NCBI GenBank assembly: GCA_965237935.1
Contig: CBDEGW010000004.1
Location: 861,340 to 925,339, forward strand
Origin: Dehalococcoidia bacterium
GTDB lineage: Bacteria; Chloroflexota; Dehalococcoidia; Lucifugimonadales; CBDEGW01
Direction: 5' to 3'
DNA: 64,000 bases
The notes beneath the pieces are model-generated. The model ran no database searches. It was given only the letters and a program-made list of their open reading frames with translations, and was not told the DNA's origin. A program made the position numbers and the translations under genes. Below, one piece after another: positions 9,390-52,251 of the stretch. Every line of letters begins with the position of its first letter. Position 1 is the first letter of the stretch.

Positions 9390-9526
9390 GACTTTGCACA
9401 AATACTCAGGAGAGTGCAGAGAACCTAGGTTCTCTGCCAGGGAGTCTGAGGGGTGCCCCTCAGGAATTAGACATATCGGGTGGGTGGGAAAGAAAACGTC
9501 TGCTGTTGGACTTTAGATGCAAAGCC
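9390..9526 (-). mobile_element. MITE-like repeat, subfamily A, copy A1 (degenerate ends)
   Basis: Contains GACTTTGCACAAA...TTTAGATGCAAAGCC termini, the 22-bp perfect palindrome GCAGAGAACCTAGGTTCTCTGC and the CTGAGGGGTGCCCCTCAG hairpin. Flanking 9-mers match 6/9. Confidence 0.75.
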
Positions 9527-9609
9527 CTAGGAGTCCCAGAGGGGATTAAACAAATCCGCTTTCAACACTCTTTAAGTGGTTAGAGATCAATCTAACTGCA
9601 CAGGTCAAA

Positions 9610-11607
9610 ATGCTAAGTGCGTCCAACATCAGTAAGGCCTACGGAGACCGGGTTTTGTTCACTGGTCTCTCCTTCAACGTCGCGGCCGGAGAGCGCATTG
9701 CTCTCATAGGTCTCAACGGGTCCGGCAAGACCACCCTCCTGGACATTCTGGTTGGCGATATGTCTCCGGACACTGGGAGTATATCCAGGCATCGCAACGT
9801 CACTATTGACTATCTCAAGCAGGAGTACGATCGGTTTTCCGACAAAACCCTGCTTCAAGAGGTGCTGGAGGTACCTTCCGAGGAGGCCGCTCTTAGGGAC
9901 AGGATTGCTGCCACCCATGAGTCCCTTTCATCGGAGACCGGCCCAGGCAACCATGATGAGCTGTTACGACAACTCAGCCAGCTCGACATGGCGTTGGAGG
10001 CAGCTGGTGGAGGCTACAGGGAGCATGAGGCCAAGGCGATCCTCTCGGGCCTGGGCTTTAAGCAAAACGACTTCTTCAGACCCCTCGGCGAGTTCAGCGG
10101 CGGTTGGCTCATGCGCGCTGCACTGGGCAAGGTGCTTTTCAGGAAGCCGGATGTGTTGCTCTTGGACGAGCCAACCAATCACCTGGACCTTGACGCCAAC
10201 CTGTGGTTTGAGAAGTATCTGGCCTCCTTCCGTGGCGCGGTAGTCTTCACCTCTCACGACCGGGCTTTCCTGAACCAGGTAGCAACCGGTGTGCTGGCTA
10301 TTGAGCCAGACGAGGTGGTGTTCGCCAGGGGCGGCTATGACGACTACCTCATCGCCCGCGAGCGTTCCCTTCAGGTCAAACAGGCGGCCGCGGCTAGGCA
10401 AGAGCGCGAGGTCCAGAGGCAGATGCGCTTTGTCGAGCGCTTTCGCTACAAGGCCAGGAAGGCCAGCCAAGTCCAGAGCCGCTTGAAGCAGCTCGCGAAG
10501 GTACAGCGAATTCAGCTGCCCAGGGCAACCAAGAGGGTCCACTACTCCTTCCCGGAGCCGTCTCGCAGCGGCGCTGAGGCAATCTGTCTTACCAACGTGA
10601 GCAAGTCCTACGGCGATCACTCCGTCTACCGCGGTCTGAACCTGGTCCTGATGCGCGGTGACCGAGTCGCCCTGGTTGGACCCAATGGCTCCGGGAAAAC
10701 CACCTTGCTGAAGATCCTCGCGGGTGTCCTTCCCTTTGAGGAGGGTGAGCGGAAGACTGGCCACAACGTGATAACAGCCTACTACGCGCAGCATGTGCTG
10801 GAGCTCCTCAACCCAGGCAACACGCTCATCGAGGAGCTTCAGCAGACTGCACTCGAGGCGTCGGAGCAGAACCTGCGGCACATCCTCGGTGGCTTCTTGT
10901 TCAGCGGCGACGACATTCGCAAGCCCATATCCGTGTTGTCTGGTGGAGAAAAGGCGCGAGTGGCCCTGGCCAAGCTGCTCGTCCAACCAAGTAACCTGCT
11001 GCTCATGGACGAGCCAACCAACCACCTGGACATAGTCTCAAGGGAGATTCTCGCGGACGCCCTCAGCGACTATCGCGGCACCATCTGCCTCATAACCCAC
11101 GACCGCACTCTCATACGGCAACTCGCCAACAAAATCATTGAGATCGATAGCGGCCAACCCATGCTCTTCCCAGGCGACTACGACAGCTACCTGTATCGGA
11201 AACAGGTGGAAACCGCGCAGAGTAGCGCCCGTGTCGTTGCCAACGGAGTGGACCATGCCGTTTCGGAGCCAGACCCTGCCGGCAATCGCCCCGCGGGGAG
11301 ACGCTCCGGACGACCGCGAAGCGCCGAGGAGGAGCTGCGCCGTGTCCTCAGCAGAGAGGCTCGCAGGCTGGCCACGCGGATAAATGAAATCGATGCCACG
11401 CTGGTGGCTCTCGAAGCCCGGATTGCGCAGTTGGAGGCGTTGTTCTCTAGCCCGGACCAGTTTGAAGACGCGTCTCAACTGGCCACCTCCGGAGAGCAGT
11501 ACCGGGTGCTCAAGAGGGAGGCACAATTGCTCTTGGAGGAGTGGGAGAGGTTGTCGTTGGAGGCGGAGAGGATTGAAAGCCAGCTCGGGGAGCTCAATTC
11601 CCTATAG
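9610..11607 (+). CDS. ABC-F family ATPase (two ABC domains, no TM domain)
   Basis: Walker A motifs GLNGSGKTT and [12 protein letters not shown] signatures FSGGW and LSGGEKARV. Walker B motifs [11 protein letters not shown] and [12 protein letters not shown]-terminal coiled-coil tail. Confidence 0.9.
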
Positions 11608-11709
11608 AGTTCAGGGACTCTGGTAGCCGGGGCGATGATGGTCTGGAGGGTTTGGACAGGAGTTAACACCAGTTCTCTGAACAGGACTGAGGCTTCCTGG
11701 GTCATTGGG

Positions 11710-11851
11710 GGCTTTGCACAAAAAGTCAGGAGAGTGCAGAGAACCTAGGTTCTCTGCCAGGGAGTCTGAGGGGTGCCCCCTCAGGAATTAGACATATCGG
11801 GTGGGTGGGTGGGAAAGAAAACGTCTGCTGTTGGATTTTTTGTGCAAAGCT
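11710..11851 (-). mobile_element. MITE-like repeat, subfamily A, copy A2
   Basis: GGCTTTGCACAAAAAGTC...GATTTTTTGTGCAAAGCT termini with both internal palindromes. Adjacent 9-mers GTCATTGGG / GTCATTAGA match 7/9. It sits between convergent genes. Confidence 0.8.
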
Positions 11852-11877
11852 GTCATTAGAAGAGGGAGTATAGAGCA

Positions 11878-12174
11878 CTAAACCATCTCGTAGAACTCTA
11901 TGTAGCTCTCCTCCTGGAGTTCCCTAAGCTGACTATAAATGGTCCCGAGCTCGTCGGGTTCGCTGGCTTCTGAGTCAAAGGGAGAGCGAAGCGTCTCCTC
12001 AGTCCAGTCCATGTAGACAGTGTTGGCCGGCCCTGGCACAGTGTAGCCGCTCCAATAGACCCTGGTGGGAGATCGCCCTGCTTTCTCGTAGCCCTTCCCT
12101 ATCTGAGCGATTAGCTGAGCTGCATTACGTGTAGCCCCAGGCTTAACCTTATAGACCCGCCTAATTAGGTACAT
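11878..12174 (-). CDS. small hypothetical protein (98 aa; possibly NIPSNAP/Dabb-like fold)
   Basis: Clean ORF with an ATG start and coding-like composition. No motif I can name with confidence. Confidence 0.5.
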   Translation of the reverse strand: MYLIRRVYKVKPGATRNAAQLIAQIGKGYEKAGRSPTRVYWSGYTVPGPANTVYMDWTEETLRSPFDSEASEPDELGTIYSQLRELQEESYIEFYEMV

Positions 12175-12603
12175 TCGACTCCTTTCTAGCTAGCTCGAGA
12201 TATTTTGACGTTCCGTTTCTCTTTAGCTTACACGAAACTGAGAATGGCCGATGTTGGCAACCTACATGGATGCCGCGGGGATTACCGTGGCGGTATGGAT
12301 TTAAGTCCATCTCATTGCCCTCGGTTGTGCTAATCACCTCTGGTACTCCTAGCCGTTAGGTCACATACTATACGGGTCGCCATAGCCTCTAAGCCATACC
12401 CTCCCATTGGGACTCTTACCGAAGGTTCAGCCATCTTATCCGAACTGGGGTTCAGGAGTTAATTATCTGACGGTATCCAATGCCTGCCGAGTAAGATGTC
12501 GTCAAGAGGCAGGGCTCGGCATTCCAGTGATTGGAGGATGTGTTTGACGGTCTATAATATATTAGAGCTACACAAACCGTAGAACGCAATCCTGAGGGGA
12601 AAC

Positions 12604-12792
12604 ATGGTCATAGGAAAGGAACGCACTAACTGGTATGAAGGCCATGGATCGGCCTGCACCTGTGCCGATTGTGTGGCACGGGCGGCGGAGCAGCGCCGGT
12701 TTGATAATGCAACCCAGGGCCGCAAGGTAGGGCGCAACGAAAAGTGTCCATGTGGTAGCGGTAAGAAGTACAAGAAGTGCCATGGCGGTTAG
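12604..12792 (+). CDS. SEC-C motif domain protein (62 aa)
   Basis: The C-terminal [15 protein letters not shown] is the SecA-type metal-binding SEC-C motif. An upstream CTCADC pair is also present. Confidence 0.75.
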
Positions 12793-12901
12793 CCATCTCC
12801 GAGCACCCTTGGAGGGAGACCAGAAGAATATGCGCTACCGGCCTTATCGAGCGTTACGATGGCAAACCGCAGATCATAGCCCGCAATGACTAAGAAGGGG
12901 C

Positions 12902-13387
12902 TCAGTCTCTGAAGTTGATGTATTGGAGCGGTAGGTCAACTTTCATCTCTTTAAGTGCCTCGATGGTCTGCTGAAGATCGTCGCGCTTTTTGCCGGTGAT
13001 ACGGAGCTCGTCGCCCTGGATGGCTACCTGGACCTTGAGCTTCCTGCCCTTCACCATTTTAATGATCTGCTTGCCCGTCGCTTCATCAATGCCCTGGCGA
13101 ATGACGACCTCTTGCCGCAGGCTGCCTTTCGTGGCGTTCTGAGGGGTCTTGAAGTCTAGCACGTCGCTGTCGACTCCACGTCGGGCACAGTACTTGTGCA
13201 ACAGTTCGTGCATCTGCCGCAGCCGCATGTCGTCGTCAGCCGTGACCGTGAGGATGTTGCCGGAACGCTTAATAGAGCACATGTTCCCTTTGAGGTCGTA
13301 GCGCTGTTTGGCCTCACGCTCAACGCCGTTAAGAGCGTTATCGAGCTCCCCAATGTTTGTCCGGGATACGACGTCAAAGGAGGGCAT
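12902..13387 (-). CDS. yajQ: YajQ family (UPF0234) nucleotide / cyclic-di-GMP-binding protein
   Basis: MPSFDVVS... N-terminus, 161 aa, with the ...QRYDLKG... pattern typical of YajQ. Confidence 0.8.
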   Translation of the reverse strand: MPSFDVVSRTNIGELDNALNGVEREAKQRYDLKGNMCSIKRSGNILTVTADDDMRLRQMHELLHKYCARRGVDSDVLDFKTPQNATKGSLRQEVVIRQGIDEATGKQIIKMVKGRKLKVQVAIQGDELRITGKKRDDLQQTIEALKEMKVDLPLQYINFRD

Positions 13388-13999
13388 TCAGAATTCCTTT
13401 CATACAGACAAAAAAACCCGCATTTATAAGTAATTACCCGGATATTACTGGGTAATATCACTTGAGGCAAGACGCGGCCCCTCTATTGTTCGGACAACGG
13501 TGGGTCGTCTTTCGACCAGATTGACGGTGAGTTTCCTATGATCAACGTACTCTTCGGGCATCCGTCCGAGCCCAACACGGTGCTGGTCGGGAGCATAGAT
13601 GGTCTTTACCGATCGACCGGTGCTGTTAGGTCGCTGGCCACCACCGTTTCGCATATGCGGCCAGGGCTTTGGAGTTGGCATCGATTCAAGAGTCAATTGG
13701 TTCACCCTGTCCGAGCGGGCTTTCGTCGATGCGATCAGGTTCAACAAGAATCGCTTCGTCCAAAAGGATGTCGGTGGAGGAAGCGTACATCTCCATGTCA
13801 CCTCCGAGCATCGAGAATAAAGATCAAGACACCATTATCCAGCGCCCAGGTCAAGCTGGGTCATACCTGGGTTTTGACACTAATTTTGACATCAACGCCC
13901 ACTCACTACTGGATACAACAAGGAACATAGCAGATAGGCGGCCTGATTTCCTCAGGACGCCTGCGTATTTGGAGACACGTTGAGGGACAAAGGTATTCA

Positions 14000-14038
14000 G
14001 CTTACAAAACAGCTGCTCTACCACTGAGCTACGGTGGC
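14000..14038 (-). other. tRNA-like 5' half (acceptor + D-arm + anticodon-loop TTTGTAA), not a complete tRNA
   Basis: The reverse complement reads GCCACCGTAGCTCAGTGGTAGAGCAGCTGTTTTGTAAGC. It has a canonical D-arm (GCTC-AGTGGTA-GAGC), but the anticodon stem pairs poorly and no T-arm or 3' acceptor strand follows. Confidence 0.3.
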
Positions 14039-14260
14039 ACGAATCTACCGCTTGGAATCGGTAATGGTACGCCAGAGATGGAGACATTGTAGCGCACGGG
14101 CCCCATGGGGGAAAGAAGGGCTCAGTGTGGACTGTTGAAGACGCGAGCAGCCTACTTGCCCAATGGGCGCTTGCGGGAAATTTTAGTGGTGCTGGGCGTT
14201 AGGCGACACGTGAGTTGAGAAGCTGGAGGTCACCACTCGCCGCTCTGCGCGGCGAAGGAG

Positions 14261-16282
14261 CTAAGCGTTGGCGGCGACGATCACTGTCGATGCCGACATA
14301 AGAGCTGCCCCCACGGCGGGCGGCATAACGAACCCTACACTGAATAGCGCGCCTGCAGCCAGTGGAATGGCCAAAACGTTGTAACCGGTAGCCCACCAGA
14401 GATTCTGGAGCATCTTGCGATAGGTCTCGCGTGCCAGCCGCACGATGGTCGCCACATCTTCCGGCCTCGAGCGGACCAGAACAACGTCCGCCGACTCGAT
14501 AGCCACGTCTGTGCCAGCCCCGATGGCTATCCCAACATCGGCCTCAGCTAGCTCGGGGGCATCGTTCACCCCATCGCCCACCATAGCGACCGTAAATCCA
14601 CGCTGTTTGATCTCACGGACCTTGGCCGCCTTTTGATCCGGTCGCACCTCCGCGAAGAAATCGTCTAGACCAAGCTCGCCCGCGACGGACCGCGCAACTA
14701 CTTCAGAATCGCCGGTGAGCATCATCACGCGGACGCCCATCCTCTTCAGCTCATCCACCGCCGCTCGCGACTCCTTGCGAACGACGTCGCCAAGGCTGAC
14801 TGCTCCTTCTAACGACCCATCCACGAGAAGGTACACGACCGTATTCCTCGAATCTGCGAGGCCACTCATACGATCTGAGTCGGCGGTGAGCCCCTGTTCT
14901 CGTAAATAACCGGGGCTGACCACCTTGATGTCGTGCCCATCTATGACTCCGCTTGTTCCCTGGCCCGGTAAGGCACGGAACTCGCTCACGGGTATGCTCT
15001 CGAGCCCCTGAGCTGATGCCGCCTCCACGATTCCGCGGGCTATCGGGTGCTCCGACTGGCTCTCCAGACTCGCTGCCAGACCGAGAATTTCTTGCTCACT
15101 TCGATTTGCCAGTGGAACGACCGCGGTGAGACCAAATCGTCCTTCTGTGAGTGTGCCGGTCTTGTCGAAAATGACAGCATCAATGGCTCTCGCTCTCTCA
15201 AATCCAGCACGGTCTCTGATAAGGAGGCCGGCTCGCGCGGCGATCGATGTAGACACGGAGACAGCCAACGGAATGGCCAGCCCCAGTGCATGCGGGCAAG
15301 TGATGACCACTACTGTCACCGCCCGTTGAAAAGCGAAGTTGGCTCCCTCTCCAACGGCTAGCCAACCCGCCAAAGTTCCAGCGCCGGCGGTGAGCCCGAT
15401 CAGCGTGAGCCAGGCCGCGGCACGGTCGGCTAACCGCTGCGTGCGTGAGCGAGTCTCTTGCGCTTGGCGGACCAACTCGATCACTTGAGCAAGGTAAGTC
15501 TCCTCGCCTGTGCGCTGCACCTCGACGGTTACTGCTCCTTCCCCGTTTATGGAACCGCCGATGACTTGCAGGCCAGGAGTCTTTTCGACTGGGAGACTTT
15601 CTCCCGTTAGCATGGCCTCGTTGACCGACGTACGGCCGTCCACGACCACCCCATCGGTGGGGACTCGTTCACCTGGCCTAACAGATACATGGTCTCCGGG
15701 CTGAAGCTCGGCGATAGGCACGTCTACCACCATGCCGTCGTCGCCCACCTTGTGTGCCTCCGAGGGCATTAAGCCGGCCAACACCTCAAGTGCCCGCGAA
15801 GCACCCATGATGGAGCGCATCTCCAGCCAATGGCCAAGGAGCATGACGTCGATGAGGGTAGCGGTTTCCCAGAAAAACCCGTCGCCGGAGACCCCAAAGG
15901 TGATGACGCTGCTGTAGACGTACGCGTTCGTTATCGCGACGGCGATGAGCGTCATCATGCCTGGGGACTTGGACCGGGTCTCGGCAACAATCCCGGTCAG
16001 GAAGGGCCAACCACCGTAGAAGAAGACCACCGTGGCGAAGCCCCATTGGATAAAGCTGTCTCCAGAGAAATCCCAGGCGCCGTCAACCCCAAGGTTTTCT
16101 TGAATCAGTGGTGCCAGCAGCAGAATCGGCACGCTCAGGATCAGCGAAACCCAGAAGCGGCGACGAAAGTCGGCCACCATGTGGGCATGGTGAGAGCCCT
16201 GGTGCATCGCGTCGTGCTGCTGAGGAGACCCGCTCCCTACGGGGTGTGTGCCGTGCTCGTGTTGGTTTACCGAATGATCCAT
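14261..16282 (-). CDS. copB: heavy-metal (copper) translocating P1B-type ATPase, CopB-like
   Basis: His-rich N-terminus (HEHGTHP...HQGSHHAHM). Transmembrane CPH motif (ITCPHALGLAIP). DKTGT phosphorylation site (FDKTGTLT). Hinge GDGVNDAP. Confidence 0.9.
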   Translation of the reverse strand: MDHSVNQHEHGTHPVGSGSPQQHDAMHQGSHHAHMVADFRRRFWVSLILSVPILLLAPLIQENLGVDGAWDFSGDSFIQWGFATVVFFYGGWPFLTGIVAETRSKSPGMMTLIAVAITNAYVYSSVITFGVSGDGFFWETATLIDVMLLGHWLEMRSIMGASRALEVLAGLMPSEAHKVGDDGMVVDVPIAELQPGDHVSVRPGERVPTDGVVVDGRTSVNEAMLTGESLPVEKTPGLQVIGGSINGEGAVTVEVQRTGEETYLAQVIELVRQAQETRSRTQRLADRAAAWLTLIGLTAGAGTLAGWLAVGEGANFAFQRAVTVVVITCPHALGLAIPLAVSVSTSIAARAGLLIRDRAGFERARAIDAVIFDKTGTLTEGRFGLTAVVPLANRSEQEILGLAASLESQSEHPIARGIVEAASAQGLESIPVSEFRALPGQGTSGVIDGHDIKVVSPGYLREQGLTADSDRMSGLADSRNTVVYLLVDGSLEGAVSLGDVVRKESRAAVDELKRMGVRVMMLTGDSEVVARSVAGELGLDDFFAEVRPDQKAAKVREIKQRGFTVAMVGDGVNDAPELAEADVGIAIGAGTDVAIESADVVLVRSRPEDVATIVRLARETYRKMLQNLWWATGYNVLAIPLAAGALFSVGFVMPPAVGAALMSASTVIVAANA

Positions 16283-16713
16283 CGATGCCCCACTCTGGAA
16301 GTATCATAATGGCGAGCTGAAAACTAAACAAGCCGAAACAAATGGAGGGGAACAACCCGCACCCTTGCAAGGGGCGACGCTCCCTTTGTAGCGACCTGCC
16401 ACCCTCCGAGGTCCAGTAGCTGGATGCTTTCTCACCTGAACTAGCCCAATGGGCACTTCGGGCAAATTTCCTATTACTGGCTCGACGTTTGCAGCAGCGG
16501 ACGGGATATGTAATCCTTACCGGTCGAGGGGGTGGTAGGCCTTGGGCTCGTACAGTTCGAGAGGGAGCAGTTCGTAACTGGTGCAACTGCATTTGTCTCA
16601 CTAGCGGTGCCCCTTCAATGGTGAGAAGCCCTGCCCTGGGGAGCGAGCCACTCAACAGAGCTCGAACTCGGGCGCTGTGGAGAAGCACCTCAGGCTGAGG
16701 CCCGGTAGACAGT

Positions 16714-17841
16714 ATGGCACACAAGTCGTCGATTCCAATCGAGCTCTTGACCACGTCAGATCAGGTTTATGACCTAGCCCATATCTTATTCCAGGAACGC
16801 TGTATCGCTTTAGATACCGAGTCAAACAGTCGGCACAGATACCCTGAGAGAGTCTGTTTGGTTCAAGTGGCGACCAACAGCAAGGTCTACCTAATCGATA
16901 CGCTTGCTGTAGATGAAATGAAACCAATAGGCGCAGTATTGGCAGACGAGACGGTGTTAAAAGTGATTCAGGGCGCTGAATACGACATACGGTGCCTGGA
17001 TAGAGAGTGGGGGTTTCGGGTACGAAATCTCTTCGACACGTCCATCGCAGCCCGCTTTGTCGGTATGACGCAGTTCGGACTGTCAGCTCTGACTGAGGCT
17101 TTGCTGGGAGTGCACGTTCCAAAAGATGCCCGCATTCAAAAAAGCGACTGGTCCCATCGGCCGATCAGTCACGAGGCCTTGAATTACGCAGCTACGGATG
17201 TCTGGTATCTTCTGGGTATCCAGGAGGAGCTTGAGAGCAGGCTGCGAAGCCTCTCAAGGTCTCCATGGGTTTCTGAGGAGTGCGCTCGCTTGGAAGAGAT
17301 CCGTTACGTTGCCCCGGATCCGGAAACGGCGTTTCTATTACTGAAGGGCAGCCACAGGCTAGATGGGCAAGAAAAGGCGATTTTGAAACGACTATTCATG
17401 TTGCGAGAAGCCGAGGCTCGGCGTCGCGATCGGCCTCCCTACTATGTTCTGCCACACGAAACTCTAGTCCACTTGGCGTCCAATCCGGCCGCCGATCTAG
17501 CCAAACTCCCATCACTCAGGGGGCAAGTTGACTCCCGTTTTGGCAGGCTTTTACGCGCAACTCTTGATAAGGGATTGGCCGATCCACCAATCAGTAGTCC
17601 AATCCGTTATAGCGTACAACCGATGACGCCGGTTGAAATTAAGCGTCTACAGATACTGAAGACGTGGCGAGTGAACCTGGGGCGGCAGCTGTCTATTGAT
17701 CCGGCTCTAGTATGGCCGATGGCAAGTCTGGAACGTCTTGCGAAAGCCCCTCGCACATTGGGTGCTGAGCTTCAGTCACTCGAGGTGAGGCAGTGGCAAC
17801 GTGAGCAATTCGCTACGTCATTGGGGGCCTCCCTCGCCTAG
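16714..17841 (+). CDS. rnd: ribonuclease D-like 3'-5' exonuclease with HRDC region
   Basis: DEDD-type exonuclease motifs (ALDTESNS, GAEYDIRCL, YAATDVWYL) followed by HRDC-like repeats. 375 aa. Confidence 0.8.
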   Translation: MAHKSSIPIELLTTSDQVYDLAHILFQERCIALDTESNSRHRYPERVCLVQVATNSKVYLIDTLAVDEMKPIGAVLADETVLKVIQGAEYDIRCLDREWGFRVRNLFDTSIAARFVGMTQFGLSALTEALLGVHVPKDARIQKSDWSHRPISHEALNYAATDVWYLLGIQEELESRLRSLSRSPWVSEECARLEEIRYVAPDPETAFLLLKGSHRLDGQEKAILKRLFMLREAEARRRDRPPYYVLPHETLVHLASNPAADLAKLPSLRGQVDSRFGRLLRATLDKGLADPPISSPIRYSVQPMTPVEIKRLQILKTWRVNLGRQLSIDPALVWPMASLERLAKAPRTLGAELQSLEVRQWQREQFATSLGASLA

Positions 17842-18277
17842 TTGAATAGCGCGCCCCCCAATCTGCCCCGCTTAAACACCTTGTCTTGGAGCAGGGGGTC
17901 CAATTGCCGATTCTGAGGGCAGCGTTCAAGTTGACAGAGGAAACTGGAAGAGAGCATCATTCCTCTCATTGGGGGGCGATCTCCTCCTGTAGGCACCATT
18001 GTCGAGCCTGGAAAATGCTATCCCGTGATGATCCAATGCTCCGTTGCGTCGTCGAGACCTTGCCAGTGTCTGGGCTCACCTGTCGTGCGATTAGGGTATG
18101 TTATTGCTCTATCTGAGTAGCGTCCAGTCACGGAGTGCTTTGAGATATGATAGCGGACGGTATCGCAGAGGCAGTCCAGGTGCCACCAAGATTGAAGTAG
18201 GATCGGTGATTAGCAACCCATTTCACCTGATGTAGCAGCGGCGTCTACGGCCAGGCGTGACCTGAGGTTAACCGACT

Positions 18278-19024: not shown

Positions 19025-19066
19025 TAGAACATCGACAGCTAGCCCAATGCAGGAGGAGAGTGAGAA

Positions 19067-21722: not shown

Positions 21723-21728
21723 GAAGAA

Positions 21729-42624: not shown

Positions 42625-42738
42625 ATACAAAGAGGTTCTCTGTCAAGGGTAGGGATCAGGAGATCATTGGCACCGATAAAAAACAGGGTCTTGGCCTAAG
42701 CTCTGCTGGCCCGCCACTCACATCGGTCTGGGTGTGGC

Positions 42739-43761
42739 TTACTGGGGCTGCTGCGAGATGAGATTGCTGCCGTCGTTATCCAGCTTGCTGCTGGCTCCGA
42801 AGGCATATCCTTTACCTTCTCCCTGGACGTTAAACATGCCCACCACCACCGGTGCCACTTTGCCGCTGCTTCTATTGCTACCCTCTTTGCACGGATCACC
42901 CACATTGAAGTAGCAGAGGGTAACGTCTATGTAAAAGATACCCCAGTCGTTGGGTATAGCCTGGAAAGTAATTACCCTCACCTCTCCCCCCCGCATCTTA
43001 ACGGACGCATATGGCGCTTGGCCGAAAGATAACGCAAATTCCGGCCAGACCAGTAGAGGGCTATTATCGTTGGCCAAGCAACCAAAATGAGGCTGGGCCA
43101 ACCCAGTGCAGAGACCCTGTTCCGGGTCGAAGGGCTGTACGGGAAACAGGTCCCCACCCACTTGCCCGGGTACGTAGGAGTATGAAGGGTCCATCCGTAC
43201 GGCGACCTGCCGCATATCTTTTTGGGCTGGGCTACTGCTGCAATTCAGTATATTGATGGTGTACTCTATGGGCTCACCCACTCGAGCCCAGTTCTGGTCG
43301 CCAGGCGTGCTCAGGTCCGTGTCGCGGCTGACGCTGGGGAAAAAGCATACGCCAGGCACCAGTACTGGGGTGGGCTCCGTGAGCGCCGTCAGTTCGCCGG
43401 GCACCGATACGGTAACTGAGACGTCCTGGTTGTTGACCCTATCCACCACTGTATGCGGTGTCCCAGTCGGCAGAGGCAGGGTGGTCAATATCCATTCGCC
43501 CTCTGATGCCACACAGTCGGCGAAACTGCCGTCCGAGACCTGGTCGCCATCGCAGTCGAACTGTTCCACGTACTGAAGCATATACAGAGCCTGCTGAGTA
43601 ACGGCACCAAGGGCGTACTGCACAAAGGCGCTTGCCCTAGACACCTTGACGAAATTCAGGGCGGCATCGACGTATCTTAGGGTGGGAGTCAAGCCTATAG
43701 CGCCTACCCCAAGGAAGATCAGCACCAAGACCAGGGCAAGGCCTCGTTGTCCCCTCATCAT
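42739..43761 (-). CDS. PilX-N-like pseudopilin / pilus assembly protein
   Basis: The N-terminal MMRGQRGLALVLVLIFLGVGAIGL... resembles the PilX N-terminal hydrophobic segment. Its start overlaps the stop of the upstream pilin gene (ATGA). Confidence 0.55.
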   Translation of the reverse strand: MMRGQRGLALVLVLIFLGVGAIGLTPTLRYVDAALNFVKVSRASAFVQYALGAVTQQALYMLQYVEQFDCDGDQVSDGSFADCVASEGEWILTTLPLPTGTPHTVVDRVNNQDVSVTVSVPGELTALTEPTPVLVPGVCFFPSVSRDTDLSTPGDQNWARVGEPIEYTINILNCSSSPAQKDMRQVAVRMDPSYSYVPGQVGGDLFPVQPFDPEQGLCTGLAQPHFGCLANDNSPLLVWPEFALSFGQAPYASVKMRGGEVRVITFQAIPNDWGIFYIDVTLCYFNVGDPCKEGSNRSSGKVAPVVVGMFNVQGEGKGYAFGASSKLDNDGSNLISQQPQ

Positions 43762-44357
43762 ACCGGCACCTGACTGGCCAGGAGGGCTCCGTAGACCCGG
43801 AAGGTCCTCTTCTCGGTTACGTCGGCGCTCCCCTCCAGCGCAGAGGTTACCTCTATGGCGAAGAGGTTGCCGCTTCTGGAGAACTGGACGCTGGTGACGT
43901 TCCGTGCCACGGTGGATGTGGTAGAGGTTGTCCAGGTACCAATACAGGTATCATACGTAGGTGAGGTCGGGTCGAGGTCCCAGTCATTGCAGACGCGCTG
44001 CTGACGCTGAAGGTCAGAGCCGGAGAGGCTATACTTTGCCTCGCTTCGCTTGTAGACCGCTTCCCCTCCTCCGTATTTATCGTACTGGTCGGCGTCGGTC
44101 CAGTCGGTCCAATCCAGCGTTAAGGAGGAGGCCCCCACAAAGTCACCGTCCACCGGCCTAGAGGCCTGGGCCAGGGGTATGTCTTTCCCCAGCTCTCGGA
44201 CCGCATTCTCCAGGGGCCTTAGGGCGGTTATCCGATCGTTATTTCGGTTGGTCTCAAAGACCATCTGGATGACGCTGACAGCCAACACCGGCAGAACCAG
44301 ACCTATGGACCCAACGGCCAGAAACAACTCGATAAAGGTAAAGCCACGCTGGTCCAT
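43758..44357 (-). CDS. prepilin-type N-terminal cleavage/methylation domain protein (minor pilin)
   Basis: MDQRG/FTFIELFLAVGSIGLV... is the class III signal (G-F-T-x-x-E). Confidence 0.75.
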   Translation of the reverse strand: MDQRGFTFIELFLAVGSIGLVLPVLAVSVIQMVFETNRNNDRITALRPLENAVRELGKDIPLAQASRPVDGDFVGASSLTLDWTDWTDADQYDKYGGGEAVYKRSEAKYSLSGSDLQRQQRVCNDWDLDPTSPTYDTCIGTWTTSTTSTVARNVTSVQFSRSGNLFAIEVTSALEGSADVTEKRTFRVYGALLASQVPV

Positions 44358-44358
44358 A

Positions 44359-44826
44359 TCACTTCTTCACGTAGGTGGTGAGATTCAGAATGGGCTTGCC
44401 ACTGCCGATGCGAGAGACCAATGCCGTGATCTTCTGAAGGGCGTTGTCGCCAGGAAAGTCTAGCGGAGTGGTAATGATGGCCAGGGAGAAGTCTGGCGGC
44501 GGAACAATAGTCACTGGATAACAACCGTCAGGATGATCATAGCAACCGGGGTCATTGTTGTAGGTCGCGGTCTTGATGTCCTCGAGCTGGGAGCGGGCCA
44601 GGGCCTCCGCCTGGGTCTGCTCGTCTACGGTGCCAGCGGACTTGGTGCCGGCGTTCAGGGTGGACATGAAGGCAACGCCCACTATCCCCAGGATGCCCAT
44701 GGCCAGGATAACCTCCAGCAGGGTGAAGCCGCCCTGGCCCCGCAGAAGAACCATTGAACAGCAGCGCATAACCAACACTCGTGGCAAAGTTCTTAACATC
44801 GGATGTCCGTTGCTCTTAGTGTTCAC
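44359..44826 (-). CDS. prepilin-type N-terminal cleavage/methylation domain protein
   Basis: ...LLRGQGG/FTLLEVILAMGILGIV.... The true start is probably an internal Met (MVLLRGQGG, about nt 44754). Confidence 0.7.
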   Translation of the reverse strand: MNTKSNGHPMLRTLPRVLVMRCCSMVLLRGQGGFTLLEVILAMGILGIVGVAFMSTLNAGTKSAGTVDEQTQAEALARSQLEDIKTATYNNDPGCYDHPDGCYPVTIVPPPDFSLAIITTPLDFPGDNALQKITALVSRIGSGKPILNLTTYVKK

Positions 44827-44963
44827 CTAGAAGAGTGAATTGAACAGAGATTTGAGGTTCAAAAGAAAGACCTGTAAGGCTAAAGAGAAAGACCCTTCTG
44901 GTTAGCCCGTGTAGGTCAGTGGTACACTCTACCCACTAGACTGCCGGTCCAAGGAGGAGTGCG

Positions 44964-46340
44964 ATGGCCGACAAGCAGACCTCTGACACGAGCGTCATAG
45001 AGCGACTGGCCCAGTACATGGTGGCAGCGAGAAGCGCAAAGCTTCCCCCGGAGGTGGCTCAGAAGGCCCGGCACCATATCCTGGATACCATCGCCGCAAT
45101 GGTCTCGGGTGCCTCGCTGGAGCCCGGCAGGCTCGCCATCGGCTATGCCCAAAGTCTAGGCGGAACGCCCGAAGCGCAGGTGGTGGGCTCCTCCATGGTG
45201 ACCTCCGCAGTGAACGCAGCTCTGGTCAACGGCATGCTGGCTCATGCTGATGAGACTGACGATTCTCACGCCCCATCTGGGACTCATCCGGGTTGCGCCG
45301 TTGTGCCGGCGGCCTTAGCCATGGCCGAACGGGCCAACGGAAACGGCGAGACCCTCCTCAACGCCGTAGTCCTGGGCTACGACGTTGGATGCAGGACCAT
45401 GCGAGCCCTACGTCCTAACGAACCCCTGGAAGGAAGGACCTTCAGCAGCCACAGCATCGGTGGTGTCTTTGGCGCCGCGGCGGCGGCCAGCGCATTCATG
45501 GAGATGACGCCTATTCAGGTACGCCATCTCTTCTCCTACACCGCACAGCAGGCCTCTGGGATACCCTCATGGGTGACCGACCAGGAGCATATAGAGAAGG
45601 CCTTTGACTTCGGTGGTATGCCCGCTCGCAGTGGCGTGGCGGCGGCCACCATGGTAGCGGCGGGATTTACGGGAGTGTGGGATGTCTTTGAGGGAGACCG
45701 GAACTTCTTTCAGGCCTTCTCACCCAGCGCCAACAGGGAGGAGCTGCTCAATGAGCTGGGGAGCCGCCACGAGATCATGCTAACCAACATCAAGAAGTAC
45801 TGCGTCGGCTCGCCCATCCAGGCAGCCGCAGATGCCCTCCTGAACATTATGCGGGAGCACCAGGTGAGAGCCACGGACGTGGAGCAGATGACCGTCACCC
45901 TATCCGAAGGCGGCGCTCGTACGGTGAACGACCGGCATATGCCGGACATAAACCTGCAATATATGCTGGCCACAACCCTCCTGGATGGGGAGCTGACCTT
46001 CGTGGCGGCCCATGACTACCCTCGGGTGACCGATCCTCAAGTCCTGGAGTTAAGGAAGCGCATCGAATTGCGGGGCGACAACTCCCTTGTCACGCCGGAA
46101 AGCCCACGACAGGCAGTGGTGGAGCTGACGACCAGAGACGGCCACCGCTTCCGAGATCATGTGGTAACGGTGCGGGGCACCGCTGAAAACCCTATGACCA
46201 CCGAGGAGGTGGAGACGAAGGCCCGGGAGTTGCTGTTGCCCAGCCTCGGCGAAACGAGGACAGAGGGTCTGATAGCTATGGTCCGCAATCTGGGGTCCTT
46301 GTCCACTGTTCGAGAGCTCCGACCGCTACTGACCGGCTAG
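44964..46340 (+). CDS. MmgE/PrpD family protein
   Basis: 458 aa with ...ARHHILDTIAAMVSGA... and ...AHADETDDSH... motifs typical of 2-methylcitrate dehydratase-like proteins. Confidence 0.85.
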   Translation: MADKQTSDTSVIERLAQYMVAARSAKLPPEVAQKARHHILDTIAAMVSGASLEPGRLAIGYAQSLGGTPEAQVVGSSMVTSAVNAALVNGMLAHADETDDSHAPSGTHPGCAVVPAALAMAERANGNGETLLNAVVLGYDVGCRTMRALRPNEPLEGRTFSSHSIGGVFGAAAAASAFMEMTPIQVRHLFSYTAQQASGIPSWVTDQEHIEKAFDFGGMPARSGVAAATMVAAGFTGVWDVFEGDRNFFQAFSPSANREELLNELGSRHEIMLTNIKKYCVGSPIQAAADALLNIMREHQVRATDVEQMTVTLSEGGARTVNDRHMPDINLQYMLATTLLDGELTFVAAHDYPRVTDPQVLELRKRIELRGDNSLVTPESPRQAVVELTTRDGHRFRDHVVTVRGTAENPMTTEEVETKARELLLPSLGETRTEGLIAMVRNLGSLSTVRELRPLLTG

Positions 46341-46982
46341 TGGCTGCTGAGATAGGCTTCCAAAGGGGCTCCAGCCCTATGCTCAGGATGAGGCTTCCAC
46401 TATGGGGCCCTTTATGCTTTGCTCCAGAACGTCCAGGGCACCACGAAAGTCCGAGGGCACGAGGCCCAGCGCGTCGGCGGGAAGGCTGCCCGCTAGGTCT
46501 ATGAACACGGGCACCAGGGCCGACTCTGTCAGGGCCTTGCCCAAGTGCTGTTTGGCACCGGGCACCTGGGGAAAGTTGGCGACGATACTAGCCGCCAATC
46601 CTTCATCCGCTATCTCGGCATTGTAGGTTAGGTGTGCCATGCCGATGATGGCTGCTGCAGATAAAGCGGCGCCGGCAGCTAGACCCATGGCCACACCCCC
46701 CAGCCTATCGACGAATCCTAGGAGAAGGATAGTGGCGATCCTCCGCACTATGACAGCGATGACCACAGCTACGATGACGGCCATCAGGATGATCAGGAAG
46801 TAGGAGACAATGGTAACCACAGACTCCTTTGTAGCGGCCTGGGCAATGGGTACGGGCAAATTCCCCACAAAGAGGTGGTCGGTGAGCCATGCGCTAAGAT
46901 CGCCGCTAATATGGCCGGCCAGCAATATTCCCACCAGGACCCCGACTGCCAAGAAGGCGGTCTGTATCAGCCCGGTTCTAAG

Positions 46983-48686
46983 CCCGAATCCACCGAAGGA
47001 CGTCCTTGGGGACAGCCCTTGAAGAAGGCAGAGGGTGCTCCTCTGAATCTGGGATAATGGTTTTGGAACAGAAACCCGCCCGGAAACAAGGAGCACCCAA
47101 TAGATGCTGCCACAGAACAAACCCGACCGTATCCGCATCCTCTTTGACGACCATCGCCTGGTGGCCAATGCCGGCCTGCTCCTGCCGGCCACCCTAGCCC
47201 GGCACCTGGGCCTGCGGGAACTCGTCGACCATCACCTTGACCTCGGCGGAGCGCCGGGACGGGCGAACACTGGGGACAAGATGCTGACGCTGGTCGCTTC
47301 CGCGCTGGCAGGCGGCGACTGCATCGACGACGCCGATGCGCTGCGCGCTGGTGGGACGGTCGGTGTTCTAGGCTGCGTGGTCAAGGCGCCATCCACCCTG
47401 GGGACCTTCCTGCGCAGCTTCCGGTGGGGGCATGTCCGTCAACTCGACCGCGTGAGCCGCCAGTTGTTGGCCCGGGCCTGGGCCGCTGGGGCCGGACCCG
47501 GCGACTCGCCCCTGACCATCGACCTGGACTCGACCATCTGCGAGACCTATGGACTGGCCAAGGAGGGAGCGCGCCACCACGGCTATACCGGCGCCCGCGG
47601 CTATCACCCACTGCTGGCCATTGCCGCCGGCACCGGCGAAGTGCTGATGTCCCGGCTGCGCGAGGGCCGGGCCAACACCGCCCGTGGCGCCGCCCACTTC
47701 CTGCGTGAGACGGTGGGGCGGGTGCGCTACGGCGGGGCCAGGGGACAACTCACGGTGCGGGCCGACAGCGGCTTCTACGCCCACACTGTCGTTGCCGCCT
47801 GCCGGGAAATGGATGTCCGCTTCTCTATCACCATCCGCCAGCGCGCCAGCCTGCGGGACCTGATCGAGGCGATACCAGAGGAGGACTGGACTCCCATTCC
47901 CTACTGGATGGACGGTGCCGCCGATGTCGCCGAGACGACTTACACCCCGTTCCAGACCAAGCCGGACGCCGCGCCGGTGCGGCTCATTGTCCGGCGGGTG
48001 AAGCCGACGCCCGGTTCCCAGCTCGCCCTCTTCGCCAGATACAGCTATCACGCCTTCATCACCGACCGCGATGGGGAGACGCTGGAACTGGAGGCCGATC
48101 ATCGCCGCCACGCCGAGGTCGAGAACGCCATACGCGACCTCAAGTACGGCGTCGGGCTGAACCACATGCCGTCGGCGCGCTTCGCCGCCAACGGCGCCTG
48201 GCTGGCGGTCCAGGTGATGGCGCATAACCTGGCCCGCTGGACGGCGCGGATTGGTCTGGGCGAGCGGACCGTGATCACCAAGACCCTCAGGCGGCGGGTC
48301 TTCGCTCTGGTGGGACGGATCACCCGCTCGGCGCGCCGCCTCACTTTGCATCTCCCCCGGCGCTGGCCTTGGGAAACCCAGTTCAGTCGCGCCTTGGCCC
48401 GGCTGCAAGCCATTCCGTTCCCGGCCTGACGGCCAGCCTGCAACTGACCCAACGTCCCCGCAATCTCGCGCCACCCCGGTCGCGAGAGTCCCCTGCTGCG
48501 TATCCTCTCGCCATCCCGCGCATCGCAACTCCCGCATAGGGCCTTAGGGGCCCTGTGCGGCGACTGAAGACCGTCCGCCGGCCTCCCATCTACCCCAAGA
48601 CCCCAGGCCATCTCCCCTGTAGCTCCCTCACCCACCCCCTTCCGCTGTCCTCACGCCGTCCATCGGTGTCCTTCGGTGGATTCGGG
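46983..48686 (+). mobile_element. IS1380-family insertion sequence, copy 4
   Basis: Same element. Flanking direct repeat CTAAG (46978-46982 and 48687-48691). Confidence 0.92.
47104..48429 (+). CDS. IS1380-family DDE transposase
   Basis: Identical 441-aa protein. Confidence 0.9.
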   Translation: MLPQNKPDRIRILFDDHRLVANAGLLLPATLARHLGLRELVDHHLDLGGAPGRANTGDKMLTLVASALAGGDCIDDADALRAGGTVGVLGCVVKAPSTLGTFLRSFRWGHVRQLDRVSRQLLARAWAAGAGPGDSPLTIDLDSTICETYGLAKEGARHHGYTGARGYHPLLAIAAGTGEVLMSRLREGRANTARGAAHFLRETVGRVRYGGARGQLTVRADSGFYAHTVVAACREMDVRFSITIRQRASLRDLIEAIPEEDWTPIPYWMDGAADVAETTYTPFQTKPDAAPVRLIVRRVKPTPGSQLALFARYSYHAFITDRDGETLELEADHRRHAEVENAIRDLKYGVGLNHMPSARFAANGAWLAVQVMAHNLARWTARIGLGERTVITKTLRRRVFALVGRITRSARRLTLHLPRRWPWETQFSRALARLQAIPFPA

Positions 48687-48872
48687 CTAAGGCCTATATA
48701 AGAACCCATAGCCAGGATGGCGATGAAGACCAGGTCCAGCCAGTTCATAGCTTATAAGGCATATTATTTCACGGCCTTTTACCCGCGATAAGTGACGGAG
48801 GCCTAGCAAATGGCACCTATTCAGGTTCATGGGAATGCGCCAGTAGGTCGAGCAGACTGCGACCTGCTATAG

Positions 48873-49310
48873 TTGAGTTCAACATGTGGAGTGCGGCCTG
48901 CCCTCACATCCACACACGAGAAACGACTATGGGAGGCCGCCTTGCTGACGCTGGCTAGCTGGTACCAGAGGGATAACTGGCGTGGGAGGCCGATGAGGAT
49001 CTCCAAATACGCCGGGCGCGGAATTAAGAAGTCCCCATACAACTGGGGCGTGGTGTCCTGCCTGGTGCCGGACTGGTCCCTGGTCAAAGCGATCCGCAGC
49101 GGCAGCATCTCTCTGGATGAGTACTCCTCGGCCTACCTTCGAGGCCTTGAGGAGAGGTGGGATGAGGTGTCCGCCTGGCTCTCCTCACTGACCCCCAGCG
49201 AGGACTTTACCCTCCTCTGCCACGAGCGTGAAGGGGAGTTCTGCCACCGGTGGCTGGTCGCCGATCTGGTCAGGGAACACCGGCCGGACATCCCCATCGA
49301 TTTGCGCTGA
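48873..49310 (+). CDS. DUF488 family protein
   Basis: ...LLTLASWYQ...MRISKYAGRG...LVPDWSLVKAIRSGSISLDEYSSAYL...FTLLCHEREGEFCHRWLVADLV matches the DUF488 pattern. The real start is probably the internal TTG near 48942. Confidence 0.65.
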   Translation: MSSTCGVRPALTSTHEKRLWEAALLTLASWYQRDNWRGRPMRISKYAGRGIKKSPYNWGVVSCLVPDWSLVKAIRSGSISLDEYSSAYLRGLEERWDEVSAWLSSLTPSEDFTLLCHEREGEFCHRWLVADLVREHRPDIPIDLR

Positions 49311-49332
49311 GCTCCGTTTTTACGTGGGCCTC

Positions 49333-49475
49333 GGCCTTGTGCAAAAAGTCCAATAGCAGACGTTTTCTTTCCCGCCCACCCACCCAATATGTCTAATTCC
49401 TGAGGGGACACCCCTCAGACTCCCTGGCAGAGAACCTAGGTTCTCTGCACTCTCCTAGGGTTTTTGTGCAAAGCT
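49333..49475 (+). mobile_element. MITE-like repeat, subfamily A core with subfamily B-type right end, copy A5
   Basis: GGCCTTGTGCAAAAAGTCCAATAGCAGACG...CTCCTAGGGTTTTTGTGCAAAGCT. CGTGGGCC is present on both flanks (left copy offset by 2 nt). Confidence 0.8.
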
Positions 49476-49569
49476 CGTGGGCCCTAAGGGCGATGAGTCT
49501 CCCTACTATTCTTCACACGTCTGGGTGGCCTCAGCAGCGGAGCGCCGGAGGTACACGAACCGTAGCCAG

Positions 49570-50649: not shown

Positions 50650-51026
50650 TAACGCTCCTGCCTGTAGGAGGCCCAGGCCACCTGGTTTTCCCAGATCTTG
50701 ACGGTGGTTGCCTTCAAGTTGGGGGCCTGAATGCGGTCAGAGAGGGAGTGGCTAAAGATGCGAGCGAAGTGCTCGACGCTGGGGTTAAGCCCCTCGAACT
50801 CAGGCAGGTCGTTCAGGGTCGCATCCCGGTAGCGGGCCACCAGCTCTTCCAGGTTCCTCTCGATATCAAGGATGTCCACCAGGTAGCCATGCTGGTCCAG
50901 GGTTGCGCCTTCCAGTTGGATCTCCACCTCGTAGTGATGCGAGTGCAACCGGTTCTCGGAGCCCCAGTCGCCACCTACAAGGTAATGCTGAGCCACGAAA
51001 TCTCTTTTTACGGAAACGGTATACAT
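50649..51026 (-). CDS. 6-pyruvoyl-tetrahydropterin synthase / QueD-family protein (catalytic Cys not evident)
   Basis: ...FVAQHYLVGGDWGSENRLHSHHYEVEIQLEG..LDQHGYLVDILDI... follows the PTPS fold pattern, but has LHSHH where the usual CxxxHGH occurs. Confidence 0.7.
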   Translation of the reverse strand: MYTVSVKRDFVAQHYLVGGDWGSENRLHSHHYEVEIQLEGATLDQHGYLVDILDIERNLEELVARYRDATLNDLPEFEGLNPSVEHFARIFSHSLSDRIQAPNLKATTVKIWENQVAWASYRQER

Positions 51027-51045
51027 GGCGGCGCGCTCCTAGAGA

Positions 51046-52068
51046 TCAGTTCTCGTCATAGGTGAGCATCACCTGGATGGCCTCTTCAGGGTGTGTATCC
51101 AGCAATTCGTAGGCCTGGGCCGCCCGGGATATCGGCAATCGATGGGTGATGAGGCGTGCGGGCTTTACCTGCTCAAGCATCGACCAGGCCACCTTGAGGC
51201 GACGTTCCTTGCTCCAGCGTCCCGTCCACTCAGGAGCAACGGTGCTCACCTGGCTGCTTATAAGTCGAATGCGGCTTCGATGAAAGGCGCCTCCCAAGTC
51301 CAGGCTGGCCCGCTTCTGGCCGTACCAGGAGCCTATGACTATCCGGCCACTGAAACCCGTGGCGGCGATGGCCTGGTCCAGGGAGTCCGGATTGCCGGAA
51401 AGCTCGTAGGTGAGGTCCGCTCCTCCTTCCCGAAACAGGGAGCTCAACTGAGCCCGGAGGTCCTCGGTATCGGGGTCCAGGCTGGCGCGGGCCCCCAGGG
51501 CCAGGGACATCTGGCGTCTAAGCGGGTACTTATCCAAGGTGACCAGGCTGTCCAGAGGCATTCTGGCCAGCAACGCCGTGGTCAGCAGGCCTACCACCCC
51601 TTGCCCGAAAACCAGTACACGTTCTCCGATAGCCGGATTTCCGTCCATCAGGAAATTAACGGCCGTCTCCATGCTGGGTAGGAAAGCGGCTTCATCCGTG
51701 GAAATGGCATCGGGCACTGGGCGGAGCTCCGCGGGCGAAGCCGTAAAATGGCTCTCGTGGGGATGAAAGGCGAAGACCCGCCTTCCCTGCCATTCCTCCG
51801 CCACGCCATCGCCCAGAGCTACAACCCGGCCGACGGCGGCGTACCCGTACTTAAGGGGGTAGCGAAAATCGCCGGACAGGGCGGAAATCGTGGCGTCCAG
51901 GGGTACGTCTGTGGGAGCCTGGCCTCGGTACACGAGCATCTCTGTGCCCGGACTGATGGCCGAGACCAGATTTTGCACCAGCACCTGGCCGGCGGTGAGC
52001 TCAGGCAGGAAGTCCTCGCTTACCGACACCTGGTAGGGCGCGTTGAAGCACACACTTAACCGCTTCAC
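51046..52068 (-). CDS. medium-chain (zinc-type) alcohol dehydrogenase family oxidoreductase
   Basis: GroES-like N-terminus and a Rossmann GxGxxG (VFGQGVVGLL). 340 aa. First gene of a three-gene operon. Confidence 0.8.
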   Translation of the reverse strand: MKRLSVCFNAPYQVSVSEDFLPELTAGQVLVQNLVSAISPGTEMLVYRGQAPTDVPLDATISALSGDFRYPLKYGYAAVGRVVALGDGVAEEWQGRRVFAFHPHESHFTASPAELRPVPDAISTDEAAFLPSMETAVNFLMDGNPAIGERVLVFGQGVVGLLTTALLARMPLDSLVTLDKYPLRRQMSLALGARASLDPDTEDLRAQLSSLFREGGADLTYELSGNPDSLDQAIAATGFSGRIVIGSWYGQKRASLDLGGAFHRSRIRLISSQVSTVAPEWTGRWSKERRLKVAWSMLEQVKPARLITHRLPISRAAQAYELLDTHPEEAIQVMLTYDEN

Positions 52069-52109
52069 TACGGTGTGTATTCTACCATAGGGGCTTCATA
52101 TCTCTGCCT

Positions 52110-52251
52110 GGCTTTACAGAAAGAGTCCAACAGCAGACGTTTTCTTTCCCACCCACCCACCCGATATGTCTGGTTCTTGAGGGGACACCCCTCAGACTCC
52201 CTGGCAGAGAACCTAGGTTCTCTGCACTCTCTTGACTTTTTATGCAAAGCC
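52110..52251 (+). mobile_element. MITE-like repeat, subfamily A, copy A6
   Basis: GGCTTTACAGAAAGAGTCCAACAGCAGACG...CTTGACTTTTTATGCAAAGCC with both internal palindromes intact. Confidence 0.8.

Follow-up and report, generated by a model that had tools for sequence, protein, structure and literature searches.

Correia elements (CREE/NEMIS) of Neisseria are non-coding sequences of ~100-155 nt with inverted ends, target duplications and subtypes that differ by modules and deletions; they are dense near genes, form long hairpins when transcribed and have no cognate transposase known in their host. The BOX elements of Streptococcus pneumoniae and the ERIC/IRU elements of enterobacteria are modular (boxA-B-C) with variable inner modules, intergenic and stably structured as RNA, and they persist at orthologous sites with occasional gain or loss. 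The repetitive extragenic palindromes REP/BIME and REPIN are dense intergenic palindromes with conserved pairing, which may serve as binding sites or as barriers at RNA 3' ends, and REP within BIMEs is found in different flanking contexts. The insertion sequence (IS) IS903, a 1057-bp member of the IS5 family, has GGC termini and a 9-bp target duplication. Here we describe a repeat family that shares these traits and is present in ten copies in a 64,000-nt stretch of a Dehalococcoidia genome (contig CBDEGW010000004.1, positions 861,340 to 925,339), which is called the window in the following. In all likelihood the copies are a family of miniature inverted-repeat transposable elements (MITEs), that is, a non-autonomous DDE element, in a SAR202-type genome of the Dehalococcoidia (Chloroflexota). 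They have inverted ends, are flanked by 9-bp duplications, have been gained and lost at orthologous sites while others persist, and keep both of their hairpins by compensatory changes. The MITE-like mobility proposed in an initial annotation, made from the sequence of the window alone, is thereby supported by the ends, the target duplications and orthologous sites that are filled or empty.

Copies and anatomy of the repeat family

The ten copies proposed in the initial annotation, nine clear copies and one composite of a repeat of 137-159 nt, were all recovered in place. A profile search (nhmmer, with a profile made from these copies) detected nine of them at E-values of 1e-23 to 1e-46 and the tenth as a partial match (37267-37342, E = 5e-10), and a covariance model found the same ten, its only extra match being an inverted partial one within the composite copy B4. 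Neither search detected further copies in the 64-kb window. The copies, named after their A-type or B-type core, are as follows.

A1, 9390-9526, minus strand: full length, A-type core; 9-bp flanks CTATAAGTA (9381-9389) and CTAGGAGTC (9527-9535); site empty in locus L033 of a relative.
A2, 11710-11851, minus strand: full length, A-type; the best inverted ends among the copies.
B1, 25810-25963, plus strand: B-type core, with 25 nt inserted after hairpin 1; left end diverged (GGTCTGTCCACTAAATAGCG); an aldo-keto reductase gene begins 39 nt downstream.
B2, 30056-30214, plus strand: full length, B-type; perfect 9-bp duplication CCCCCTGCC at 30047-30055 and 30215-30223.
A3, 31625-31766, plus strand: begins 8 nt past the amt stop codon.
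B3, 35168-35286, plus strand: left end truncated; adjoins a synteny break with locus L030 of a relative.
B4, 37253-37508, plus strand: head-to-head composite of left end, C-tract, hairpin 1, tandem repeat (3.4 copies of 34 bp, 37340-37456) and inverted C-tract.
A4, 41023-41163, plus strand: left edge of a variable gene island.
A5, 49333-49475, plus strand: chimeric, joining an A-type core to the B-type right end CTCCTAGGGTTTTTGTGCAAAGCT; target duplication CGTGGGCC(T/C) at 49323-49331 and 49476-49484; right edge of the variable island.
A6, 52110-52251, plus strand: reference for the anatomy, with left end 52110-52126, C-tract 52148-52162, hairpin 1 52177-52195, hairpin 2 52204-52225, tail ACTCTCTT 52226-52233 and right end 52235-52251.

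The element is ~140 nt long and non-coding, and runs in the order left end, C-tract of (CCCA)n, hairpin 1, hairpin 2, CTCCT tail and right end. The inverted ends, GGCYTTGCACAAAAAGT on the left and ACTTTTTGTGCAARGCY, pair over about 17 nt rather than the ~13 bp originally assigned to them, and are paired in 79% of cells (14 pairs in 36 aligned copies). Hairpin 1 is built on GGGG-ACA-CCCC, and hairpin 2 reads GCAGRGAACC-YA-GGTTCYCTGC. The 22-nt palindrome GCAGAGAACCTAGGTTCTCTGC has six matches in the window at up to three mismatches versus none in 100 dinucleotide-preserving shuffles; four of the six are perfect, as had been stated, one has one mismatch (41116) and one has two (31719). The terminal motif GGCYTTGCACAAA occurs 16 times in the window versus 2.35 expected.

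Multiple alignment separated two core types, which correspond to the two modular subfamilies distinguished in the initial annotation. Type A reads CTGAGGGG-ACA-CCCCTCAG followed by GCAGAGAACC-YA-GGTTCTCTGC, and type B reads AAGGGGG-ACA-CCCCCTT followed by ACAGGAAACC-CA-GGTTCCCTGT. The combination of an A core with a B-type right end, previously ascribed to A5, is seen in the same alignment. The loop of hairpin 1 had been drawn with two nucleotides, which applies to A1 only, the loop being of 3 nt (ACA or GCA) in most copies. Similarly, the degenerate B-type relative annotated at 37255-37495 is indeed a copy of the repeat, but its organization is that of the composite B4 with its 34-bp tandem repeat. 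The copies have no coding capacity, and the description of all of them as intergenic holds generally but not strictly, as B2 and B3 marginally overlap the predicted 5' ends of open reading frames (ORFs; 29597-30115(-) and 34880-35188(-), respectively). Relative to the upstream gene, three copies in the window are forward and three reverse, showing no bias.

Eight of the ten window copies lie on the plus strand, and in each of two further loci all copies share one strand (6/6 in L019 and 4/4 in L004), regardless of gene orientation; this same-strand tendency within a locus could reflect replication-strand bias, local duplication or chance. The insert after hairpin 1 (CTTCG....CTCAGGACAGGC, ~22-25 nt) occupies 25862-25886 in B1, 30113-30137 in B2 and 35185-35209 in B3. 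A homologue of it lies within the hairpin-2 loop of a relative's copy (L035:1464-1649), the same short sequence thus occurring in two positions.

Target duplications and empty sites

Insertion by a DDE transposase is recognized by inverted ends in combination with a duplication of fixed length, here 9 bp. For 12 full-length copies (eight from the window, one from L009 and three from L019), with boundaries taken from the profile, the 9 nt to the left were compared with the 9 nt to the right. Cognate flanks matched at 6.1 of 9 positions on average versus 3.8 of 9 for non-cognate flanks (p = 5e-5, 20,000 permutations). The match was complete for B2 and for a copy in L019 (CCACTCACC), 8/9 for A5 and for a further L019 copy (ACCTCACC(C/T)), 7/9 for A2, and 6/9 for each of A1, A3, A4 and the L009 copy. 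These target-site duplications are a feature absent from the initial annotation.

Comparison of orthologous sites in relatives, which that annotation had suggested, revealed presence/absence variation. The site of A1 is empty in L033, from a relative whose ABC-F gene is 92% identical. The window reads ...TGAACCTAACAG-CTATAAGTA-[A1]-CTAGGAGTC-CCAGAGGGG... and L033 reads ...GGAACCTAACGG-CTAGGAGTC-CCATCGGGG...; removal of A1 and one copy of the duplication from the window leaves an uninterrupted alignment with L033 across the junction. Directly upstream of the junction the match is 13/16 and is unique within the 22-kb L033 locus. In the reciprocal case, the PTPS/ADH spacer is 20 bp long in the window, and L035 (about 92.5% identical) has a 176-bp degenerate copy there.

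Fate of the copies in relatives

The ~92%-identical relative is represented by L030 and L035, two 21-kb loci of one contig, which contain three and five to six copies, respectively; L019, a contig of 5.4 kb, holds six. The ~92%-identical relative has copies at the sites of B1, B2, A3, A4 and A5. A remnant of A6 is also present in L035, consisting of the first 22 nt of the element and including the shared variant TTTACA, and the apparent empty site of A6 there was accordingly rejected as a deletion.

Occupied sites do not always carry the same modules. The A3 site in L030, downstream of amt, has the same flanks and the same unusual left end GGCCTTGCCC as in the window but a B-type core, and the A4 site, where the core is A-type in the window, carries in L035 a B-type copy that breaks off in the middle of hairpin 2. 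The exchange of modules that the initial annotation had put forward is borne out by these two sites. Moreover, the 25-nt insert common to B1, B2 and B3 of the window is absent from the orthologues of B1 and B2 in L030, so that paralogues are more alike than orthologues, which indicates concerted evolution and supports module exchange. At the A5 site, L035 has an internally deleted mini-copy. The copies have thus changed after insertion, through gene conversion among themselves, through internal deletions and, at rearrangement breakpoints, through truncation. Identity of orthologous copies relative to that of the flanking non-coding sequence was inconsistent, being 93% versus 85% for B2 and 89% versus 91% for B1.

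Copies also mark the edges of variable regions. Between A4 and A5, 8.3 kb of the window (41130-49414) with radical-SAM, pilin-like, PrpD, CvpA and DUF488 genes is replaced in L035 by 8.8 kb of other genes (11233-20011), comprising IS3 elements, an integrase fragment, PfkB, SDR and Rce1-like genes, and the breakpoints of this island lie within or at the edge of MITE copies. That the copies caused such rearrangements may be supposed from these positions. In L030, a prophage with integrase, baseplate and tail genes (14946-21236) stands right after the gene of an RRM protein and adjoins the point corresponding to the truncated B3 of the window.

Conservation of the hairpins

Folded as RNA, the copies reach energies between -49 and -61 kcal/mol (z-scores -2.3 to -7.1); hairpins 1 and 2, the paired ends and a weak stem around the C-tract are the four parts of the fold. 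Public genomes and metagenomes were scanned with the core pattern, which was detected in the Dehalococcoidia metagenome-assembled genome (MAG) OZ252106.1, whose ABC-F protein is 76% identical to that of the window and whose core is nearly identical to the window's, as well as in 15 contigs from marine and other metagenomes, one of which is 5.4 kb long and has six copies. Matches to the hairpin-2 pattern in Bacillus and Pseudomonas within a genome collection were rejected as chance terminator hairpins; the only other match there was the Dehalococcoidia MAG.

Covariation was assessed on 36 copies aligned to the covariance model. In this alignment, which is model-fitted and whose copies are related by descent, hairpin 1 is paired in 92.9% of cells and hairpin 2 in 95.8%. 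Both sides have changed in 33 of the 39 pairs (examples being GC 13 / AU 10 / UA 8 and AU 17 / GC 15), none of 500 shuffles matched the observed pairing, and sliding the partners by 1-3 columns gave pairing of 37-51%. Conservation extends to unpaired segments, namely ACA in the loop of hairpin 1, the linker ACYCCC and the tail CTCCT. Counts of G-U versus A-C mismatches (8 versus 4 in hairpin 1 and 9 versus 5 in hairpin 2) point to no clear strand. In some contigs the C-tract is inverted or has a CCCCCTCTCC...GGAGAGGGGG hairpin in its place. An intact core with altered ends is not predicted by the neutral decay of a plain MITE, which suggests that the hairpins are under selection; horizontal spread of related elements could contribute to the pattern. 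In the initial annotation, covariation-supported conservation across distant taxa had been considered to speak for a structured RNA gene and against a mobile repeat. Such covariation is present in other lineages, but it does not refute the mobility of the family, and the hairpins are probably under selection as well.

Each end, read outward, closes with a short hairpin followed by TTTTTGTG. A canonical intrinsic terminator is located at 25590-25618 after the ORF 24542-25471, with a 13-bp GC-rich stem followed by the same T-tract as that of the MITE ends. A promoter and terminator scan of the window from 25 to 44 kb found no promoter-like site in the copies covered and no terminator-like site in the A-type copies, the only terminator-like matches in the scanned copies being weak 5-bp stems before a T-run at the right ends of B1, B2 and B3. 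The Rfam search that had been recommended gave no match at the elements: none reached the gathering thresholds in the window, and three unrelated ones, obtained at E up to 1, fall elsewhere than in the elements. A weak match to group II intron domain 5 at 14699-14781(-), with 29 bits versus a gathering threshold of 61, falls within a P-type ATPase ORF and is probably due to chance.

If transcribed in either orientation, in 3' or intercistronic RNA, the hairpins would act as exonuclease barriers or terminators, and such a role would explain their retention. By analogy with REP, ERIC or Correia elements, retention of the hairpins as 3'-end barriers or terminators is what we tentatively propose, at well below an even chance.

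Search for the mobilising transposase

Three types of IS are present in the window, namely IS1380-like (five copies), IS256-like and IS3-like elements. The IS1380-like element (PF13701) is 1712 bp long, with copies that are 99.6-100% identical, ends CCCGAATCCACCGAAGGAC and 4-bp TTAA-like duplications.

704-2415, plus strand: IS1380-like copy 1.
4676-6387, minus strand: IS1380-like copy 2; in inverse orientation to copy 1, the pair enclosing multicopper-oxidase-like genes (2624-4557) in the manner of a composite transposon.
20335-21740: IS256-like element with the Transposase_mut ORF 20460-21671 and ends GGTCACG...AAGTGGTGTAAGA.
22651-24362, minus strand: IS1380-like copy 3.
46979-48690, plus strand: IS1380-like copy 4.
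53851-55562, plus strand: IS1380-like copy 5, splitting a CoA-transferase gene (52556.. / 55549-56268).
56111-57780: IS3-like element with the rve ORF 56845-57780, identified by Pfam domains.

The copies at 46979 and 53851 are absent from the 99.5-99.8%-identical strain L036, and the IS1380-like element is thus currently active. None of the three IS types of the window has ends resembling those of the MITE, in agreement with the initial annotation, and no transposase of the DDE_Tnp_1 type, the IS903-type cognate, is encoded in the window. The ends of a SWIM/DDE transposase element in L033 do not match either, and inverted pairs of MITE ends 0.7-3 kb apart were absent from all loci searched. 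A tblastn search with the IS903 transposase gave no match in the window or the SAR202 loci, and blastn against plasmids gave none. Scans of viral contigs yielded six chance matches to the end motif and none to the core pattern. The viral pair L028/L029 was rejected as a different element with repeated GCACCAAAA motifs, an IS903-like gene lying 3 kb from the match.

A lead comes from the ends themselves. The MITE termini are GGC, with some right ends reading AGC on the complementary strand, and GGC termini combined with 9-bp duplications typify the IS903 group within the IS5 family. The 18-bp inverted repeat of IS903 (GGCTTTGTTGAATAAATC, from an annotated plasmid record) matches the MITE end at 13/18 positions and at 15/22 when extended, in a post hoc comparison with a single member. 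On the strength of these similarities, the mobilising transposase might belong to the IS903 group, which we offer as a tentative lead, short of an even chance, and not as demonstrated parentage. A DDE transposase encoded outside the window would bind the ~17-nt ends and act in trans, making a 9-bp staggered cut and inserting the MITE.

Weighing the MITE interpretation and its alternatives

Several observations weigh against the interpretation of the family as MITEs. The window, 38 loci and viral contigs yielded no autonomous element with these ends. The likeness to IS903 is post hoc, and IS26 gives about 8/14 by hand count. On its upstream side the A1 empty site is supported by a short homology of about 16-20 nt; about 20 nt further upstream the homology stops because the neighbouring gene differs, so that the empty site rests on a short stretch. 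The covariation was counted on a model-fitted alignment of copies sharing descent. The MAG and several metagenome contigs combine an intact hairpin core with ends that are different or unrecognisable. Finally, no MITE copy differs between the window and near-identical strains from European Nucleotide Archive metagenome assemblies (ERZ26167216 ctg494829, 99.99% identical; ERZ21829488 contig_8, 99.5-99.8%), whereas two IS1380-like copies do. This indicates that the IS is active now and that the MITE is old and at most slowly mobile; the family is not demonstrably active at present.

The recurrence of a nearly identical core in the window, the MAG and metagenome contigs whose flanks and ends differ also raises another explanation, which overlaps with that of a MITE family. 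The functional unit, selected by the host, would be the ~60-nt twin-hairpin core and its C-rich unpaired segments, as a REP-like protein-binding or DNA-structure site or as a structured RNA; several element families would carry this module, and the one with inverted ends would be only one of its vehicles. Pairing kept through compensatory changes, the conservation of ACA, ACYCCC and CTCCT although they are unpaired, and a neighbouring C-tract that can be inverted or swapped for another hairpin are all consistent with such a module. However, it has no Rfam match, copies are evenly divided in gene orientation (three forward, three reverse), the mismatches give no clear strand, and orthologous copies are not consistently better conserved than their flanks; horizontal spread of one family could also yield shared cores. 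We consider this explanation rather unlikely. Slightly less likely again is the reading in which the core is a selected Dehalococcoidia/Chloroflexota module that several element families have spread to many intergenic regions and that also serves as a recombination substrate bounding variable islands, in which case it could be a protein-binding or DNA-structure site, a bidirectional 3'-end barrier or an anti-Shine-Dalgarno sponge.

Strong hairpins separated on one strand by C-rich single strands (CCCACCC, ACCCCC, CTCCT) would also suit a multi-copy family of trans-acting small RNAs of the RsaE/RoxS type, whose C-rich segments pair with G-rich ribosome-binding sites, and the C-rich strand has a weak overall excess of G-U over A-C (80 versus 41, counts that are not independent). 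Such a family is improbable, as the copies scanned between 25 and 44 kb contain no promoter-like site and only weak terminator-like matches at the right ends of B1-B3, both orientations relative to neighbouring genes occur, no Rfam family matches, and the target duplications and presence/absence variation indicate spread as DNA insertions. The duplications and inverted ends likewise argue against REP/REPIN-type repeats spread by RAYT, an IS200-like tyrosine/HUH transposase. The family is dense and intergenic with stable hairpins, the MAG locus L004 has a copy in each of several successive gene spacers, and the copies in L019 and L004 share one strand per locus, but no GTAG or CGTC tag was read at the 5' ends of the hairpins and Pfam scans or precomputed gene calls covering about 55 ORFs of the window showed no Y1/HUH domain, making this origin very improbable. 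Least probable of all are IS200/IS605-type palindrome-associated elements or orphan TnpB/IscB guide-RNA scaffolds, which would account for sub-terminal hairpins, a ~140-nt structured non-coding body and some one-strand clustering. IS200/IS605 elements are without inverted ends and 9-bp duplications, both of which are present here; moreover, the two hairpins are unlike each other, the window encodes no TnpA or TnpB domain that could be found, and Rfam gave no match to known omega-RNA or HEARO models.

Two further candidates were set aside. Integron attC sites carry the core motifs RYYYAAC/GTTRRRY, which the ends do not have; in addition, the genes nearby have ordinary metabolic and housekeeping functions and point in both directions, and target duplications are present. 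A G-quadruplex role is doubtful, A1, the L009 copy and one L030 copy having only three C-runs.

Host and genomic context

The window has a G+C content of about 55-63%, lacks genes for tRNA or rRNA and is rich in genes for luciferase-like monooxygenases, for aldo-keto and short-chain reductases, for CMD-family proteins and for CoA-transferases; the close homologues of its ammonium transporter and ABC-F protein are named 'Chloroflexi bacterium', 'Dehalococcoidia bacterium' and 'SAR202 cluster bacterium'. These names and the gene content suggest that the host is a marine SAR202-type member of the Dehalococcoidia. SAR202 bacteria are among the most abundant in the deep ocean, and few have been cultured. 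At the right edge of the window, 300-bp tandem repeats (63005-64000, 84-94% identical) lie within an ORF of more than 1132 aa (~60600-64000, plus strand) that runs off the window; it has a signal-peptide-like hydrophobic start by eye and probably encodes a large surface or secreted repeat protein.

For the genomics of such bacteria, the MITE family provides a marker for strain-level population studies and explains some of the synteny breaks and variable-island edges in these genomes. It also calls for caution in annotation, where neither ORFs nor a 'novel RNA' should be called at MITE sites. Should the hairpins prove functional as RNA or DNA structures, the phylum would have its first REP-like system, according to the literature searched.

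Comparison with known systems

Literature searches found no such family described in SAR202 or Chloroflexota. Of the systems introduced above, Correia elements differ in that they duplicate TA instead of 9 bp, have unrelated ends of 26 nt, are without the C-tract and the twin-hairpin core, and belong to Proteobacteria. BOX and ERIC elements are unrelated in sequence and have no clear target duplication of fixed length, the mode of spread being better defined for the MITE described here. REP sequences are 20-40 nt long, carry a GTAG or CGTC tag, make no target duplications and are spread by RAYT, none of which was seen in this family. IS903 encodes its own transposase of ~320 aa and is without a twin-hairpin core, in contrast to the non-coding MITE whose ends it matches at 13/18 positions. 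In its behaviour the family is closest to elements of the Correia, ERIC, BOX and RUP type, and in its insertion chemistry it is closest to IS903. It is apparently an undescribed MITE family of an ordinary kind, the less ordinary feature of which is a hairpin core that is conserved beyond the reach of its own ends.

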